From a virus: DNA of 46,813 bases. This document shows, piece after piece, positions 1,170-46,813 of the stretch. The position numbers were made by a program, and so were the translations under genes. The stretch spans positions 1 to 46,813 of the IMG/VR virus record IMGVR_UViG_3300045988_165665; one strand, 5' to 3'. Numbering within the stretch: position 1 is the stretch's first letter; the number at the start of each line of letters is the position of its first letter. Under the pieces are notes generated by a model. That model had not been told where the DNA came from. It did not search any database and worked only from the letters and a program-made list of their open reading frames with translations.

Positions 1170-1290
1170 AACCACTATATATTGTGTTATATAATATATA
1201 TATTGTTTATATATATGTTGTATATACTTTATATATATTATATATTGCATTTCTATATATATGTTATATAATATATATATACCACATATA
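1170..1290. repeat. TA-rich iterated TATATA(T)TGT-type repeats upstream of parA (candidate centromere/operator)
   Basis: About 8 copies of tatatattgt / tatatatgtt between 1170 and 1290, directly 5' of the ParA RBS. Confidence 0.5.
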
Positions 1291-1302
1291 AGGAGTGATA
1301 TT

Positions 1303-2031
1303 ATGGAAATCATCTCTATAATAAATCAAAAGGGCGGAGTTGGAAAAACAACAACTGCCCAAAATTTAACAGCAGGTTTAAGATTGCAAAATAAAAAAGT
1401 ATTATTGCTAGATTTAGATGCACAATGTAATTTAACTTTATTACAGCAAGCAACTAAATATAAATATAATATTTTAAACGTTCTAAAAAATGAAGTTGAC
1501 ATAAATACAGCTGTCGAAAAAGATTTTATCGCTGGATCTAAGTTTCTAGTTGGTGAAAATACTGAAATTGAGTTAAATAAATTGAAAAATGAATTGCAAA
1601 AATTAAAAACTGATTATGATTATATAATAATTGATACACCACCAGCATTATCTAATATAACTATTAATGCATTAACAGCAAGTACAGATATTATAATAAC
1701 GATAACAGCAGATTTACTACCAATTCAAGGTTTAGTTGATTTATACAAAACTGTACAATCTATACAAAAAACATCTAATAAAAACCTTAATATAAAAGGG
1801 ATCTTAGTAACTAGATTTAATAAACGAACTATATTAGGAAGAACTATGTTAAATAGTCTTATTGATATAGCAGAAAAATTAAATACAAAAGTATTAAATA
1901 CCAAAATAAGAGATAGTATCTCTATAAAAGAGTCCCAAGCAAAAATGACTGATATATTTAAATATGCTAGATACTCTACAGCTGGTCGAGATTATAGAGC
2001 ATTAGTAAAAGAAATATTGGAGGATAAATAA
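1303..2031 (+). CDS. parA: ParA/Soj-type partition ATPase
   Basis: Deviant Walker A NQKGGVGKTTT. AAGGAG RBS before ATG 1303 (track start 1261 is probably too long). IIIDTPP Walker B. Confidence 0.9.
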   Translation: MEIISIINQKGGVGKTTTAQNLTAGLRLQNKKVLLLDLDAQCNLTLLQQATKYKYNILNVLKNEVDINTAVEKDFIAGSKFLVGENTEIELNKLKNELQKLKTDYDYIIIDTPPALSNITINALTASTDIIITITADLLPIQGLVDLYKTVQSIQKTSNKNLNIKGILVTRFNKRTILGRTMLNSLIDIAEKLNTKVLNTKIRDSISIKESQAKMTDIFKYARYSTAGRDYRALVKEILEDK

Positions 2032-3514: not shown

Positions 3515-3548
3515 AAAAAGGGCTGCTAAAGATAGCAGCTCTTTTTTT
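3515..3548. terminator. Bidirectional terminator after the ParB-like gene
   Basis: gggctgct-aaagat-agcagctc stem flanked by an A-run and a T-run. Confidence 0.75.
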
Positions 3549-4062
3549 ATTTTATATCCCATGAATTACTAAACTCTTCATTTCTAAATAAAGATGCTAG
3601 TCCGCTCATCTGTTTTAAACGAATAACTTCATCAGCATCCATTCCTAAATGCTTCATTATCCATTTATCAGTTTTCCCCATATCTTTTAATTCTTTTACG
3701 ATATTACTCATTAAATCAACATCATGCGAACCTCTAGCTCTATTATGGCGAATTGTACTTGCCATACGTTCACCAATAGGCTTATTAACTACAGATACTG
3801 GAAGCATTCCTTTTTCACGTTCATAAATATCTTTATACTTCAGCATTATAGAATAGCGGTGAAATCCATCAACTATCTCATACATATCTTCATCTGCATT
3901 GTAATAGCAAACGATAGGCATGGTATAGCCATCTTCTTTTATGCTATCATATAATAATTTCATTTCTGGTGGTGCTACATGATTTGGATTATATTCGTTT
4001 GCACGAATTTTTTCTACTGGTACAGCTATTATATTATAAACAGGGCTTTTAAATTCTGACAT
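3547..4062 (-). CDS. ParB/Srx-fold N-terminal domain protein (IbrB-like)
   Basis: VPVEKIRANEYNPNHV...IVDGFHRY...TIRHNRARGSHD are ParB-nuclease/sulfiredoxin-type motifs. Directly follows the PAPS-reductase-like gene. Confidence 0.75.
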   Translation of the reverse strand: MSEFKSPVYNIIAVPVEKIRANEYNPNHVAPPEMKLLYDSIKEDGYTMPIVCYYNADEDMYEIVDGFHRYSIMLKYKDIYEREKGMLPVSVVNKPIGERMASTIRHNRARGSHDVDLMSNIVKELKDMGKTDKWIMKHLGMDADEVIRLKQMSGLASLFRNEEFSNSWDIK

Positions 4063-4072
4063 GATATCACTC

Positions 4073-5374
4073 CTATAAATTTTTATATTTTTCCATTATC
4101 TTCTGTTGTCTTAGTGTTAAATCTTTGGTTATAGAAAAGGATAAACCTTTGCATATTATGTCATTTTTTATAATGCACATTGCCATTCTTTTCCATGTCA
4201 ATATATCTTGCTTTTTATCTATTGGATGCTCGTCTATTATTCTTTTAAATTTAATTACTTCTTTATCACCTTTTCCTCGCTTGGAAAAACTATGTGTATT
4301 AATAATATCTTCTGGTACAGTTTCTTCTAATTCTTTTATAAAATCATCTTGCATTGGACATCCTGTTCTTTGCCAATACTTAATAAATTTTATAAATTTG
4401 GTTTTATACATCTTTGCCGTATCTGGTGGCAATGTTGACAATAAAAACTTTGTAAAACTCTTCCATGTATGATTTTTTGGCAATGTATATCTAGCGGACA
4501 TTATTTTATTACCGCTATAGATATTACCAAAGTTAGCTCCAGATACACGATTGACTACACGAACCCATAAATCTGGGGCAATAACCTTGAATAAATTCAA
4601 ACCTGCTTTTGCTTCGTTTCCAAATGGTTCATCAACACGCATTTTATCTATTGGAACACCTGCTTTATAAAACAGGTCATAAAGTTTGTTATATGGCTTA
4701 TTGTATTTGCCATAGTAAATCCAATCATCTTTTGTAGTCCAATCATATATTGGGTAAAAATTATAGCAATTATCATCTATTTTTTTGCTATAACTTTTAT
4801 CTTTATAATGATTTTCCTGCTTTCTTTGACTCCCACCGATTGCCCTAAAACGATTAAGGCTTTCATCTGTACGGATGCCTACAAGTTGAGCAGTTTTTGC
4901 ACCTGCTCCATACCATTGAGTAAAGTATTTTATAAATTCCTCAAACGGCATGTTTTCTTTATAAAAATTAAACGGATTATTTTTTAAATTTATAACCCAT
5001 TTATTTTTAGGCATAGGGCGAACCCATATAGGTTCTTTTTCTGGTTCCCACCATATCCATGTAGGATCTAAATAAGATAAACTATTTGGGCTTTCCATTG
5101 GTAGACAAACCCAGTATGGTTCAAGTACATCTTCATTTTCTGTCAGCATCTTTTCAATATACTCTATAGTTATTGGATAAAATGCTTCTAAATCAATAAA
5201 GAGAACACCTAATTTTCTTCCTCTAGCTCTTGCTATATCAATAGCCATGTTAAGAACAACACCGCTATCTTTACCGCCAGAAAAAGATATACAGACTTTA
5301 TCAAATTCATCAAATATGAAGTTTAGTCTTTCAACTGTAGCTTCATATACATTTTTGTTTTTGTATATTTTCAT
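4073..5374 (-). CDS. PAPS-reductase/PP-loop ATP-pyrophosphatase family protein with long C-terminal extension (IbrA-like)
   Basis: PP-loop SFSGGKDS near residue 30. 433 aa. Paired with the ParB-like gene, as in ibrA/ibrB. Confidence 0.75.
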   Translation of the reverse strand: MKIYKNKNVYEATVERLNFIFDEFDKVCISFSGGKDSGVVLNMAIDIARARGRKLGVLFIDLEAFYPITIEYIEKMLTENEDVLEPYWVCLPMESPNSLSYLDPTWIWWEPEKEPIWVRPMPKNKWVINLKNNPFNFYKENMPFEEFIKYFTQWYGAGAKTAQLVGIRTDESLNRFRAIGGSQRKQENHYKDKSYSKKIDDNCYNFYPIYDWTTKDDWIYYGKYNKPYNKLYDLFYKAGVPIDKMRVDEPFGNEAKAGLNLFKVIAPDLWVRVVNRVSGANFGNIYSGNKIMSARYTLPKNHTWKSFTKFLLSTLPPDTAKMYKTKFIKFIKYWQRTGCPMQDDFIKELEETVPEDIINTHSFSKRGKGDKEVIKFKRIIDEHPIDKKQDILTWKRMAMCIIKNDIICKGLSFSITKDLTLRQQKIMEKYKNL

Positions 5375-6758
5375 TGTATTTCTCCTCGTCTACATTTTTC
5401 CAAATAGCAATCTGCTTTTTGAATGAATCTAGTAGATTGCTTTTATTTTGCAAACAATTTGCTATAAAAACATCTATGGTATATTTACAGCATATATCAT
5501 AGATGTTAACCGTCCGCTCCTGGCCAATGCGGTGAACTCTATCTTCTGCCTGCAAACGAGTTGCAAGGTCAAAATCGTTCGAATAGAAGATGATGTTATG
5601 GCAAAATTGAAGATTTAAACCATAAGCTCCACATTGTTTGTTGGCCAACATAAATTGAACATCATTTTTAAACTCAATTCTATTTTGTTGACGTTGTTTA
5701 GGTCTTATTTCTCCAGTAAATTCTACAAAGGTTTTATTCATTGAATCCAAGAGAAATTTTATATCTTTTATTTCATCCTGATATTTGGCAAAGATAATAC
5801 ATTTATCATTGCCAATTTCTTCAATGACTCTTTTTAAACATTGTATACGTGGATTATTTTTCCATGTATACATCTTTTCTGTACGCATCCGTTTTTCTGG
5901 TGCTGATAACACTCTCTTACCAGAAGTAATATGTTGCAATGCAGAAAATAATTTAAATATCGTTTCCGACCGCCAATCTACTACATTAAAAAGGAATAAC
6001 TCTTTTGTTTCGTAATATTCCTCTTCTTGTAAATCATCCAAACAAAAATATCGCATATGATATTCCTTTGGTTTAAGTTCTTTTAATACCTCATCTTTTT
6101 TGATTTGGTACATATATGGAGCTATCTTTTCTGTTAAATAGTCCACATTTAGAACTCTTATAATTTGGTCGGTCGTTATCTCTCTACCACTTGGAAGCCT
6201 TACTTTTTTATATTCTAAGTGATTAGCGGCAAAGCTATAAAAAGACTTGTATCCCAATATCCGCCAATCTAAGATATACCATTGGGCGAATAAGTCCGCT
6301 TCATTCTTAGATATTGGTGTACCATTCAATATCATCTTATATTTGCAAAAAGATGATATTTCTATAATACGTTCCGTTCTTATGGCCAACTTATTTTTTA
6401 CAAGGTTGCTTTCATCCACAATTAGATAAACTTTGTAATTTTTTACTAGCTCTAACAGCTGTAAATATAATCTATCAGAACTAGACAAGCTTTCAATTCC
6501 CTTAATTATTATGTTATTTTCACTAGGTTTTTGACCTGTATGCTTTATAACATCTTCTTTAAGGTTATTTTTAACCGAACAAGGGCATAGCCAAAGTACA
6601 ACATTAACCTTTCCCTTATCCATTTTATTTTTAATAATTTCTAAAGCCGTTCTCGTCTTTCCTGTTCCTTGCTCCATATACAAAGCACCAACTTTAAGCT
6701 TAGAAAGTTTATCGACAGCTTTAGATTGGTATTTATATAGTTTTGTTTTTAAAATCAT
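5343..6758 (-). CDS. SNF2-family helicase/ATPase
   Basis: Motif I EQGTGKT, motif II LIVDESN and motif VI QAEDRVHRIGQ. Coupled to both neighbours. Confidence 0.85.
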   Translation of the reverse strand: MILKTKLYKYQSKAVDKLSKLKVGALYMEQGTGKTRTALEIIKNKMDKGKVNVVLWLCPCSVKNNLKEDVIKHTGQKPSENNIIIKGIESLSSSDRLYLQLLELVKNYKVYLIVDESNLVKNKLAIRTERIIEISSFCKYKMILNGTPISKNEADLFAQWYILDWRILGYKSFYSFAANHLEYKKVRLPSGREITTDQIIRVLNVDYLTEKIAPYMYQIKKDEVLKELKPKEYHMRYFCLDDLQEEEYYETKELFLFNVVDWRSETIFKLFSALQHITSGKRVLSAPEKRMRTEKMYTWKNNPRIQCLKRVIEEIGNDKCIIFAKYQDEIKDIKFLLDSMNKTFVEFTGEIRPKQRQQNRIEFKNDVQFMLANKQCGAYGLNLQFCHNIIFYSNDFDLATRLQAEDRVHRIGQERTVNIYDICCKYTIDVFIANCLQNKSNLLDSFKKQIAIWKNVDEEKYNENIQKQKCI

Positions 6759-11175: not shown

Positions 11176-11556
11176 CTATTTTAGTTGGCTTAGACCTCGT
11201 CTAAACTTATCTAAGCCATTTGTTGTTACTGGATTATTATTACCAGCCTGTCTATTAACTTGAGTGGTGTTACCACCTGTATTTCCACCTGCTAAGGCAT
11301 CTATCTTCATTCGCATGTCATTGATATTTATACCTGCCATATTTGCTAATACTGTAGCCATAGGATTATTTAATGCTCCTTTTACTTTGGCTAAAATTGT
11401 AGAATTTATACCAGCTTGTTGTAATATATTCATTGCATCTTGCTGTGTATTAACGTTTTTGGCCATATTGCTTGCTGGTCCCCACGCTTGTTGCAATTTG
11501 CTTGCCTGCTGTGGATTTAATTTCATCATTTGTGCTATTACTTGCGGATTTAACAT
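11176..11556 (-). CDS. Q/N-rich 126-aa protein
   Basis: GAGGAG RBS 7 nt before ATG 11556. Low-complexity Gln/Asn-rich sequence. Confidence 0.6.
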   Translation of the reverse strand: MLNPQVIAQMMKLNPQQASKLQQAWGPASNMAKNVNTQQDAMNILQQAGINSTILAKVKGALNNPMATVLANMAGININDMRMKIDALAGGNTGGNTTQVNRQAGNNNPVTTNGLDKFRRGLSQLK

Positions 11557-11869
11557 TTTTTAACTCCTCTATTTCTTTATTCATTTCTTCTATTTTTGCC
11601 GATAACGCTAAATTTTGCTGATTATTATCTTTTATTTGTCGTAATAACTCTTGCATAAGCTGATTTTGCTCTTGTTGTATTTGTTCTGGTGTCTTTTCTG
11701 GAACTATTACACCTAACTCTACTAATTTGTTGTAATATTCTTCTGTTATTTTGTTTAAATCCTCATACGCTTTATTTGTTACACCGATTACAGTTTTATT
11801 TCCGTATAAGTCTTTATCACAAATTTTGTCGCCTTCAATTACATATTGTCTAAAATTTTCATACATCAT
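11450..11869 (-). CDS. 139-aa coiled-coil protein, first gene of the cassette
   Basis: GGAG RBS. The last 35 codons overlap the next gene in another frame. Confidence 0.6.
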   Translation of the reverse strand: MMYENFRQYVIEGDKICDKDLYGNKTVIGVTNKAYEDLNKITEEYYNKLVELGVIVPEKTPEQIQQEQNQLMQELLRQIKDNNQQNLALSAKIEEMNKEIEELKNVKSASNSTNDEIKSTAGKQIATSVGTSKQYGQKR

Positions 11870-11963: not shown

Positions 11964-11993
11964 TAAAAAAAAGAAGCTACCCTAAGGTAGCTT
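11964..11993 (-). terminator. Intrinsic terminator after the 79-aa HTH gene
   Basis: aagctacc-ttag-ggtagctt stem followed by TTTTTTTT on the minus strand. The stem overlaps the stop codon. Confidence 0.75.
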
Positions 11994-12242: not shown

Positions 12243-12752
12243 TTAAAATTTATATTTTATGCCTATAGCAACTGTTTCTTTATCCAGGTATAGCCATGTT
12301 TTTTTCACATCTGCATTTATGGCCACACCATTATTTCCTAGTCCAATTCCTATAGCATAATCACTTTGCTGGTTGGTTTCGTATTTGCTCAATAATGTCT
12401 TGGCATTCTTCAAGGATTTGGTCAAATCGTTCACTTGCTCCTGTAGCTGTGTCGATTGCTGTTTCTGCTTTTCCAATGCTGTCTTGGAGTTCTCCAACTG
12501 TATCTTGGATTGCTGTAGCTGTGTCTGCAATGTCTTGTTTTGTGTCTGTAGCTCGGTCAAGTTCTGTTCTAATTTGGTCAACTGGCTCTCTGTTATCAGA
12601 TACGTATTTTCCGCACAATAGCCAGTAGATACACAACAAAATAAGAACAAAACCGCCAAAAATAAGAACGTTTCTGCCAAAAATAAGAACGTTTGTAGCG
12701 TTCTTTTGTAAAAACTCCCAAAATTTAAGAACATATGCATACATCCATACAC
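12243..12752 (-). CDS. Overlapping +1-frame ORF: signal peptide, Q-rich coiled coil and four short beta strands ending in an OMP beta-signal
   Basis: Open for 169 codons over the same DNA. C-terminus VAIGIKYKF has hydrophobic residues at -1, -3, -5, -7 and -9. An internal ATG (Met5) shares the same SD. Confidence 0.45.
   Translation of the reverse strand: MYGCMHMFLNFGSFYKRTLQTFLFLAETFLFLAVLFLFCCVSTGYCAENTYLITESQLTKLEQNLTELQTQNKTLQTQLQQSKIQLENSKTALEKQKQQSTQLQEQVNDLTKSLKNAKTLLSKYETNQQSDYAIGIGLGNNGVAINADVKKTWLYLDKETVAIGIKYKF
12361..12744 (-). CDS. i-spanin-like protein (N-terminal TM plus charged coiled coil), 127 aa
   Basis: GAAGGTG RBS 5 nt before the ATG. TM segment VLIFGGFVLILLCIYWLLCG. 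A-ending codons typical of this genome. Lies downstream of the lysis genes. Confidence 0.6.
   Translation of the reverse strand: MYAYVLKFWEFLQKNATNVLIFGRNVLIFGGFVLILLCIYWLLCGKYVSDNREPVDQIRTELDRATDTKQDIADTATAIQDTVGELQDSIGKAETAIDTATGASERFDQILEECQDIIEQIRNQPAK
12655..12696. repeat. 2 x 21-bp tandem duplication inside the dual-coding TM region
   Basis: gccaaaaataagaacgtttct / gccaaaaataagaacgtttgt. Gives NVLIFGR-NVLIFGG in one frame and TFLFLAE-TFLFLAV in the other. Confidence 0.85.
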
Positions 12753-12758
12753 CTTCTT

Positions 12759-12968
12759 TTAAGCATCTAATTCTGTAATAATCGCTTCGTTTCTATTTTG
12801 CATTGTAATATCATCAAAATAAATTACTTGATTGCCTTGCATGAAACTAAATCTTTTAAATGTGTTTTTTAAGCTTTCATTTGGGCAATGAGATTGCGTT
12901 ACAATGCCTTTAATACGTGTTTTTTCTACTGCGTTAAGTGGATTTCTAGAATATACTAAAATTTTCAT
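12759..12968 (-). CDS. Hypothetical 69-aa protein
   Basis: GGGAG RBS. No family recognised. Confidence 0.5.
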   Translation of the reverse strand: MKILVYSRNPLNAVEKTRIKGIVTQSHCPNESLKNTFKRFSFMQGNQVIYFDDITMQNRNEAIITELDA

Positions 12969-13916: not shown

Positions 13917-14204
13917 TTAAACAGCTTCGTAAGTCTTTTTAAAAATATCTGGATTGCAAGGATAAAACTCACCATTTACACCTTTTATAATGTAATCACC
14001 AAATGAAGCGTGATGAACACCTTTAAGAGTATTTATATTTATACCATTTCCCATATATATTGACTCTAATTCATCATTTATATCTAAATCTAAATTATAA
14101 GTTGAACCTAAAAATTTTAAACAAGCTTTTATACTTTCATCATTCTTTTTTAGCTGTATAGCTTGTATGATTACTGGTTTTCTTCTATATTTTTTTATTT
14201 CCAT
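13917..14204 (-). CDS. PGDYG-like small phage protein
   Basis: C-terminal FGDYIIKGVNGEFYPCNPDIFKKTYE matches the PGDYG-type motif. Confidence 0.5.
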   Translation of the reverse strand: MEIKKYRRKPVIIQAIQLKKNDESIKACLKFLGSTYNLDLDINDELESIYMGNGININTLKGVHHASFGDYIIKGVNGEFYPCNPDIFKKTYEAV

Positions 14205-14437
14205 TATTTATTACCTCTTTTTGTAAAAATATTAGAAATTGAATTGCTTAAATTTACTCCACCAATGACAACAATTAATGTCTGTATGATACTTGTTAGA
14301 TTGTCTGTTATATCTTTTTCTAACACGTACATAACAAACATAAATAAAAAAGTGAGTACACATAATATAATTAATGCACTCACTTTTGCTTCGTTAATGG
14401 ATAAACCATCTTTGATATTAAATTTTTCTTCTTCCAT
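14204..14437 (-). CDS. Holin (two TM segments)
   Basis: 77 aa with two hydrophobic helices and a basic C-terminus. GAGGAGG RBS. Lies upstream of the lysin. Confidence 0.65.
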   Translation of the reverse strand: MEEEKFNIKDGLSINEAKVSALIILCVLTFLFMFVMYVLEKDITDNLTSIIQTLIVVIGGVNLSNSISNIFTKRGNK

Positions 14438-46527: not shown

Positions 46528-46813
46528 ATGGAAAAAATAAATGAACGAATAAAACAAATAAGAAAAACACTTAATTTATCTCAAGCTGCTTTCGGTAAAA
46601 AAATTGATGTTAGTTCTTCAGCAATAGGCTGTTGGGATATTGGTATACGACAACCAAAACCTATCCACATTTCAGCAATTTGCAATATTTTTAATATAAA
46701 TGAAGAATGGTTATTACATGGAACAGGAGAAATGTTAAAAAAAGACATTGATAATAATCCTGCTTTAACACAAATAGCTAAAGAATATAATTTAACTTCA
46801 ACACAAAAAAAAT
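46528..46813 (+). CDS. XRE-family CI-like repressor, N-terminal HTH part (continues in frame into 1..304; 166 aa in total)
   Basis: GGGAGG RBS 7 nt before ATG 46528. MEKINERIKQIRKTLNLSQAAFGKKIDVSSSAIGCWDIG is a classic HTH_3. ATG at 46732 (= position 8) is in frame (204 nt). Confidence 0.85.
   Translation, partial: MEKINERIKQIRKTLNLSQAAFGKKIDVSSSAIGCWDIGIRQPKPIHISAICNIFNINEEWLLHGTGEMLKKDIDNNPALTQIAKEYNLTSTQKK
46725..46813 (+). repeat. Terminal overlap identical to 1..89
   Basis: Same 89 nt as the window start. Confidence 0.95.

Follow-up and report, generated by a model that had tools for sequence, protein, structure and literature searches.

Two overlapping reading frames kept by selection in a phage lysis cassette: a candidate spanin analogue with a predicted beta-anchored, non-lipidated outer-membrane partner

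The lysis cassette of IMG/VR virus record IMGVR_UViG_3300045988_165665 contains a pair of genes, here called A and B, that are read in different frames of the same strand along nearly the whole of B. The window that we analyzed is the entire stretch from position 1 to position 46,813 of that record (46,813 nucleotides); all coordinates are relative to this window, relatives are labeled L001-L056 (loci), and database proteins carry P-numbers. As far as sequence analysis reaches, both frames are maintained by selection, that is, dual coding at this locus is established. Frame B is predicted to encode an inner-membrane-anchored coiled-coil protein, and frame A a secreted coiled-coil protein that ends in a beta domain. 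We propose that A/B is a dual-coding lysis module, an analogue of the spanins in which the outer-membrane subunit would be beta-anchored and non-lipidated; in our judgment, this proposal stands at an even balance.

Both open reading frames (ORFs) from which the analysis started, 12243..12752 (169 aa from a GTG) and 12361..12744 (127 aa from an ATG), are present on the minus strand, and frame A is in +1 relative to frame B, as the initial annotation described. Its start for frame A is corrected here. In L006, L045, L046, and L049, all close relatives, an in-frame stop separates the position of the GTG from the next ATG (KKVY*CMHMF), and in the window the Shine-Dalgarno sequence contains this GTG (12752); we therefore reject it and place the start of A at ATG 12740, so that the protein has 165 residues instead of 169 (Table 1). 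The two starts, previously given as 8 nt apart, are separated by 4 nt with B first: in the sequence ATGtATG, the ATG at 12744 opens B and the ATG 4 nt further on opens A. One Shine-Dalgarno sequence in the leader AAAAGAAGGTGTATGGATGTATGCATATG precedes both, 5 nt before the B ATG and 9 nt before the A ATG. The stretch that the frames share is ~380 nt long and includes ~99% of B and 77% of A. The starts are arranged as ATGnATG in 23 of 36 unique homologous genes and as TTGnATG in the other 13; L001 has the same layout as the window (AGAGGT, 5 nt, ATGtATG), and that of L036 is similar (AAGGAAAGGTG, 6 nt, ATGgATG).

Table 1. Positions of the A/B genes, their predicted domains, and associated features in the window.
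Feature	Position	Strand	Details
Frame A coding sequence	12243..12740	-	165 aa + stop; secreted coiled-coil protein with C-terminal beta domain; candidate outer-membrane partner
Frame B coding sequence	12361..12744	-	127 aa from ATG; inner-membrane-anchored coiled-coil protein, i-spanin-like
Shine-Dalgarno sequence AGAAGGTG, common to A and B	12750..12757	-	Read in the sequence
A residues 1-43, signal peptide	12612..12740	-	n-region with K12 and R13; hydrophobic core; conserved Cys and small residues
A residues 44-124, Q/T/L-rich heptad coiled coil	12369..12611	-	AlphaFold2 model and heptad pattern
A residues 127-165, beta domain of four short amphipathic strands, C-terminus VAIGIKYKF	12246..12362	-	Outside the overlap
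B residues 26-45, transmembrane helix VLIFGGFVLILLCIYWLLCG	12610..12669	-	Kyte-Doolittle maximum 2.75 at residue 26; AlphaFold2 helix 19-45
B residues 46-127, acidic coiled-coil domain, predicted periplasmic	12364..12609	-	82 residues, net charge -10
Perfect tandem duplication, 21 nt	12655..12694	-	Tandem Repeats Finder: period 21, 1.9 copies, 100% match
Antisense ORFs	12373..12621 and 12395..12628	+	82 aa and 77 aa
69-aa gene directly upstream of the pair	12759..12968	-	Conserved neighbor; transmembrane segment not evident
GH25 endolysin, single domain, 196 aa	13320..13910	-	Pfam Glyco_hydro_25 E=3.9e-28; PHROG endolysin E=1e-33
Holin candidate, 77 aa, two hydrophobic segments	14204..14437	-	Equivalents in L043 and L056: Pfam Phage_holin_4_1
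Terminator-like hairpin and T-run, closing the late operon past the 79-aa gene	11974..11993	-	Downstream of A/B

The homologue sets comprise 15 database proteins for frame A (48-62% identity) together with 38 related viral contigs and one contig from a Megamonas metagenome-assembled genome (MAG); frame B is called by gene finders in 84 database clusters. A single open frame in the homologues would have spoken for one gene; both frames are open in all close loci that have a complete gene (43/43), and also in 8/8 distant loci, in which A is ~35-42% identical (a value that refers to the coiled coil region). In the 43 close loci, the open stretch of frame B runs from about -4 to +311..+377, counted from the A ATG; it ends just ahead of the A C-terminal domain at a conserved point, beyond which stops are numerous. 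The third frame of the same strand is closed, with 26-44 open codons at most inside the gene.

The length of frame B exceeds what the composition of A provides. Our null model holds the A protein fixed and draws synonymous codons from the usage of each locus (5000 trials). The resampled +2 frame never reached the observed length (0/5000) in 28 of 29 unique homologues, and it did so once in the remaining homologue (1/5000, L034); the resampled frames average 28-52 codons vs the 103-125 observed. Permutation of each gene's own synonymous codons gives P values of about 0.0002-0.03, and in the reverse test, with the B protein fixed, the openness of A has P<1/3000. T-ending codons are entirely absent within the ORF from the dicodons at which they would risk a stop in B (next AA, AG, or GA; about 14-26 sites per gene), the sole T-ending stop-risk site counted per gene being B's own stop codon; at the remaining sites of the overlap their share is 28%, and in neighboring genes it is about 50%.

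Because the average suppression of the synonymous rate in A is weak, we adopted site-wise tests, and these reveal the restrained synonymous variation for which the initial annotation had proposed to look. Third-position variants that are synonymous in A but would introduce a stop in B occur in 0/18 cases; of the A-synonymous variants that leave B open, 32% of the possibilities are seen in the overlap vs 51% in the C-terminus beyond it. Those seen are also more conservative in B (BLOSUM62 1.10 vs 0.29; Mann-Whitney p=0.0016; permutation stratified by nucleotide p=0.0018), an effect that does not appear in an out-of-frame control on the C-terminal non-overlap region (p=0.36). At the invariant or near-invariant residues of B, the A codons are 100% identical among 17 representatives, six-fold Leu codons included; outside the overlap, the four-fold codons of invariant Gly are only 21-49% identical. 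In the overlap, nonsynonymous (pN) and synonymous (pS) variation in A are 0.197 and 0.446 (pN/pS 0.44), and B has pN 0.264 and a naive pN/pS of 1.47. Frame A is thus the more constrained of the two; B is real but more tolerant.

Four of the six frames are open across this region, as had been noticed at the outset; the explanation then given, strand-composition skew, holds for the antisense ORFs and fails for frame B. One reverse frame is long in most homologues, as expected given the openness of B and the regional codon usage (P 0.07-0.99), and the other is not maintained (33-86 codons). We reject the antisense ORFs as genes, that is, we regard them as by-products of the sense frames and codon usage.

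Protein B has the i-spanin-like anatomy that had been predicted for it, an N-terminal transmembrane helix followed by an acidic coiled coil with heptad periodicity. Its first 25 residues have a net charge of +1.5, and the net charge of the domain beyond the helix ranges from -4 to -13 across all relatives. Hydrophobic residues occupy 85% of the a/d heptad positions vs 12% of the others, and an invariant E-C..II..R is located near the C-terminus. The AlphaFold2 model contains two helices, 54-85 and 90-122, at low confidence (predicted local distance difference test, pLDDT, 50). The a/d residues of B are encoded mostly by the first two bases of the a/d leucine codons of A; the heptad patterns of the two proteins are coupled because these residues share the same DNA bases.

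For protein A, closer analysis bears out the predicted signal peptide, coiled coil, four beta strands, and C-terminal G(-5)...F(0) motif. The hydrophobicity of the signal peptide peaks at 2.61 (Kyte-Doolittle, 19-residue mean); an invariant E44-x-T46-Y47 follows, preceded in most relatives by C-[GSL]-A, and the cleavage region looks like a signal peptidase I site. The lipobox [LVI][ASTVI][GAS]C is absent in A, in which the Cys contexts are TGYC-A, AVC-GA, LSC-SA, and GTC-LA, so we reject a lipoprotein reading of the conserved Cys. In the AlphaFold2 model (16 sequences), residues 51-123 form a helix with pLDDT 80-90; hydrophobic residues occupy 67% of the a/d positions vs 6% elsewhere, and the indels among homologues are 7 codons long.

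The beta domain of A is predicted to consist of strands 128-135, 138-145, 148-152, and 157-161 (pLDDT about 55 in the monomer model), in which hydrophobic residues alternate with small or polar ones; in strand 1, glycines alternate with hydrophobic residues. Y128, G131, G133, W149, D153, G160, and F165 are invariant. The domain ends in G-x-x-aromatic-x-F: in the 16-sequence alignment, G160 (position -5) and F165 (position 0) do not vary, and Y, F, W, I, or V occupies position -2. The wider set of loci includes exceptions: L049 ends in I, and the L021 group has two extra residues (..KYKFYL). The beta-signal recognized by the beta-barrel assembly machinery (BAM) has G at -5, an aromatic or hydrophobic residue at -2, and an aromatic residue at 0. 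The predicted C-terminus of A fits this consensus.

The tandem duplication listed in Table 1 is found in this window only (L005-L008 are without it). Being in phase in either frame, it lengthens each protein by seven residues, TFLFLAE in the core of the A signal peptide and NVLIFGR before the transmembrane helix of B. It also generates a terminator-like hairpin within the gene (12685..12705).

A profile of the beta domain identifies 14 proteins among 1.84 billion representatives, and all of the strong matches belong to the A family except P0262 (186 aa, L056:3253-3813). This protein has an N-terminal hydrophobic helix, a middle region that is not a coiled coil, and the same C-terminal beta domain; no long ORF overlapping P0262 was found in L056, and P0262 may be a single-chain form of the module. 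Two further database proteins are variants of the family: in P0258, the coiled coil of B is fused in frame to the beta domain of A (..IRKQPAENKSYTIGV..), by an indel or assembly error or as a natural fusion, and P0254 is a form of A from which nearly the entire coiled coil is deleted.

The distant loci, L035 (1962-2442) and L036-L042 (around 5960-6440), keep two frames; E-x-TY-x-ITE-TQ is retained in A, and B retains the motifs DNGNT and E-C. Their A proteins (A') are without the beta domain and instead have a C-terminal hydrophobic stretch of 12-15 residues (..RQRNVWCFVAGSLAIYEATN, ..NILGGIASGLLIALLVK); the beta anchor is therefore not universal in the A family. The L036 group has a GC content of 41.7%, and its 10-kb flanks are still prophage.

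The genome context is that of a lysis cassette. On the minus strand, the order is a 117-aa membrane protein (PHROG 4105), the 77-aa holin candidate, a 95-aa gene, the GH25 endolysin, a 60-aa gene, the 69-aa gene, A/B, a 79-aa gene that is helix-turn-helix-like, and the terminator. The location downstream of holin candidate and lysin, stated in the initial annotation, agrees with the relatives: the lysis context is alike in L001, L002, and L043-L052 (e.g., holin PF05105, a 207-aa gene at the lysin position, A/B, and integrase in L043; GH25 lysin, 69-aa gene, A/B, and integrase in L052), and in L036 and L053 the pair immediately follows an Amidase_2 endolysin. In L056, P0262 is likewise preceded by a holin (PF05105), then a GH25 lysin and two small genes. 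The GH25 and Amidase_2 endolysins are both short; each matches one catalytic Pfam domain, and no cell-wall-binding domain was detected in either. Short, single-domain endolysins are the usual pattern for diderm hosts. The gene directly upstream of the pair (69-70 aa) is present in the Megamonas-type loci for which gene calls were listed (L001, L002, and L043-L052) and absent from the L036 group; it has no family match in Pfam, PHROG, or NCBIfam, and it may belong to the module.

By the records in which the family occurs, the hosts of these phages are Megamonas: L003 is the Megamonas MAG, the B-type proteins at NCBI are entered as 'hypothetical protein' of Megamonas hypermegale and Megamonas funiformis, and the funiformis B cluster is found on 152 contigs of up to 259 kb. 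The window has a GC content of 30.6%, and a search with its terminase gives distant matches only, to phages of Firmicutes and Proteobacteria. The envelope of Megamonas is of the Gram-negative type, with an outer membrane. Negativicutes are diderm, and LolA and LolB are encoded in no Negativicutes genome (PMC5007114); a host without these proteins provides a rationale for an outer-membrane partner that is not a lipoprotein. OmpM, the major porin and tether of Negativicutes, is composed of a signal peptide, an S-layer homology (SLH) domain, a periplasmic triple coiled coil, and a barrel (PMC10628300).

A spanin-like bridge is the most economical function for such a pair, given an inner-membrane coiled-coil partner, a secreted coiled-coil partner with a beta-signal C-terminus, co-translation at the end of the holin-endolysin cassette, and a diderm host that is unable to sort outer-membrane lipoproteins. 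In the mechanism that we propose, a single late mRNA and a single ribosome-binding site would serve both starts, with each ribosome making either B or A. B would enter the cytoplasmic membrane via its N-terminal helix (N-in) and place its acidic coiled coil of ~80 residues in the periplasm; A would be exported by Sec, and its signal peptide would be cleaved before E-K-T-Y. BAM would recognize G-x-x-aromatic-x-F and assemble the last ~40 residues of A in the outer membrane, probably as an oligomer, so that the coiled coil of A (~75 residues) would hang in the periplasm like the stalk of OmpM and could bind B across it. After removal of peptidoglycan by the GH25 lysin, the A-B complexes would collapse or cluster, and the outer membrane would be disrupted or fused in the manner of Rz-Rz1. 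We infer the BAM insertion, the periplasmic stalk, the binding of A to B, and the step that disrupts the outer membrane. A beta-barrel anchor would replace the lipoprotein because Negativicutes are without LolA/LolB for lipoprotein transport. A broader form of the proposal, to which we assign a little less than an even chance, is that the family constitutes a new spanin class of Lol-less diderm Firmicutes, in which a BAM-inserted A cooperates with an inner-membrane B and the outer anchor module is exchanged; the anchor would then take the form of a beta domain, of a short hydrophobic tail, or of a single-chain protein such as P0262.

The pair resembles lambda Rz/Rz1 in several respects: two envelope proteins are encoded by different frames of one stretch in the lysis cassette, past the endolysin; one has an N-terminal transmembrane helix and a periplasmic coiled coil, and the other is targeted to the outer membrane (predicted for A); and the frame of A is +1 to that of B. 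However, A is no lipoprotein, is longer than B, is itself a coiled coil, and carries a beta domain at its end; Rz1 is a 60-codon gene nested in the distal half of Rz, whereas the starts of A and B nearly coincide and the overlap is near-total for B; and there is no significant sequence similarity between the two systems. The anchors at both ends of the unimolecular spanin T1 gp11 could have counterparts in P0262 (hydrophobic helix and beta domain) and in A' of L035/L036 (signal peptide and C-terminal hydrophobic segment). The polarity would be reversed, since gp11 has its lipoprotein signal (outer) at the N-terminus and its helix (inner) at the C-terminus, and no lipobox is found in A, A', or P0262.

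Homology searches did not connect A or B with a known family. Neither megablast of the region nor tblastn with A or with the L036 B' returned a match among deposited phages and plasmids, and searches with A and B against Pfam, PHROG, NCBIfam, and PDB sequence profiles returned coiled-coil noise only; by these searches, the A/B family is absent from annotated collections. DUF7365 was rejected as an assignment (a match exactly at threshold in 1/16 members only). Foldseek of the A model against the PDB gave no match at E<0.7; this search was made with A only, the B model having a pLDDT of 50. The beta domain had been likened to a trimeric-autotransporter-type anchor, and this likeness finds no support in Pfam, PDB sequences, or Foldseek: the YadA anchor (PF03895) gives no Pfam match at E<0.1, and the PDB sequence matches are coiled coils only. 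A coiled coil followed by four beta strands with a C-terminal aromatic residue, and the alternation of glycine and hydrophobic residues in strand 1, are common to A and YadA-like anchors; however, the strands of A are shorter, A is without a head domain, and it has 165 aa overall and no profile or fold match. OmpM/SlpA, a stalked porin type of diderm Terrabacteria that occurs in the same host clade, likewise has a signal peptide, a coiled-coil stalk, and a C-terminal beta region (PMC10628300); it differs in having an SLH domain and 16 strands, vs four per chain in A, and no sequence similarity to it was detected. OmpM is the better architectural precedent for A.

Several points weigh against the proposal of a spanin analogue with a beta-anchored outer-membrane subunit. 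All o-spanins and u-spanins described so far are defined by being lipoproteins (PMC6139136), and A is not one. The best matches to spanin families (PHROG Rz-like, E=2.8e-5 and 25 bits for A and E=0.009 for B; NCBIfam LysB, E 0.004-0.015) are far under the curated cutoffs, stand among many coiled-coil matches, and have the look of coiled-coil noise. The beta domain has no structural or sequence relatives outside the family, its pLDDT is only about 55, and strands of 7-10 residues are short for a membrane span. With a hydrophobic tail in L035 and L036-L042, the outer-membrane-anchor reading is not proven to be general; in the window, two small genes separate the lysin from the pair; and the mean synonymous suppression in A is modest (pS 0.446 vs 0.503). 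The spanin function itself is inferred. We class the pair as spanin-like in its proposed working and not as a member of the spanins, because it has no lipobox and no credible spanin homology.

Three other explanations compete with a spanin-like bridge. Both proteins could be made and could act on the cytoplasmic membrane or on the timing of lysis (as holin regulator, antiholin, or membrane-stress protein) or loosen the OmpM tether, which we consider unlikely. The best PHROG match of B is a holin family (E=1.7e-4), the hydrophobic end of the distant A' could remain in the cytoplasmic membrane, and A resembles the stalk-barrel layout of OmpM; however, every cassette has a separate holin candidate, and the invariant beta-signal-like C-terminus and the alternating strands point to the outer membrane. 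We know of no antiholin with the anatomy of A/B.

It is quite improbable that A is instead a miniature, headless trimeric-autotransporter-like protein, displayed on the surface with its coiled coil passing through its own 12-strand barrel; it would then serve superinfection exclusion, adhesion, or serum resistance, as lambda Lom or Bor do, B would be separate, and the periplasm would not be spanned. The succession of signal peptide, coiled coil, linker, four strands, and terminal aromatic residue is the YadA-type layout as it is known for that family, and strand 1 of A has alternating glycines. In autotransporter anchors, such glycines line the lumen. Surface display is difficult to reconcile with the failure of A to match YadA_anchor, PDB sequences, or Foldseek structures and with strands shorter than those of YadA; with a gene that lies within the late lysis operon, no promoter-like site having been found just upstream; with a co-encoded, conserved inner-membrane coiled-coil partner; and with relatives that exchange the beta domain for a hydrophobic tail or, in P0262, have it behind a region that is not a coiled coil, also in a lysis cassette.

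That a single frame is translated and the other is open by coiled-coil composition and codon bias is essentially excluded: the antisense ORFs are such by-products, the heptad pattern of B is partly inherited from the Leu codons of A, and the naive pN/pS of B is 1.47, but every lineage rejects the resampling nulls, the third frame of this strand is not open, B ends at a conserved point followed by many stops, its start codon is conserved 4 nt upstream of that of A, its residues are selected beyond the avoidance of stops, and the arrangement persists at 35% A identity.

The 2018 census of spanins describes lipoprotein-based systems only, whether embedded, overlapped, separated, or unimolecular (PMC6139136). 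In our full-text searches, no paper connected spanins to Negativicutes, Veillonella, Selenomonas, or Megasphaera, and no account of a beta-barrel o-spanin was found; within these searches, the question of how phages breach the outer membrane of Negativicutes without Lol-sorted lipoproteins is not addressed. Negativicutes (e.g., Megamonas, Veillonella, and Selenomonas) are abundant in the human gut and mouth. If the proposed function is true, the spanin concept would extend to a BAM-dependent anchor, new in both anchor chemistry and gene architecture. With ~120 codons read in two selected frames, down to ~35% identity, the locus is an unusually complete case of dual coding, and this makes it useful for studies of overprinting and for testing gene callers. 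In public pipelines, frame B is annotated alone or is accompanied by a 57-aa piece from the C-terminus of A; in some JGI records, B bears the name 'methyl-accepting chemotaxis protein', evidently an artefact of its coiled coil.

Past the terminator, two further ORFs of the same strand, 11176..11556 (126 aa) and 11450..11869 (139 aa, coiled-coil-like), both on the minus strand, overlap by ~107 nt; relatives have a 139-aa gene and a 96-aa gene at this site. No tRNA was found in the window, which may represent a plasmid-like prophage or else an entire phage genome. The window also encodes a ParA-like ATPase, a ParB_N protein, a PAPS-reductase/DUF3440 protein, and an SNF2 helicase, with genes at 1261..2031 (+), 3547..4062 (-), and 4073..6758 (-), and L001 likewise has ParA downstream.

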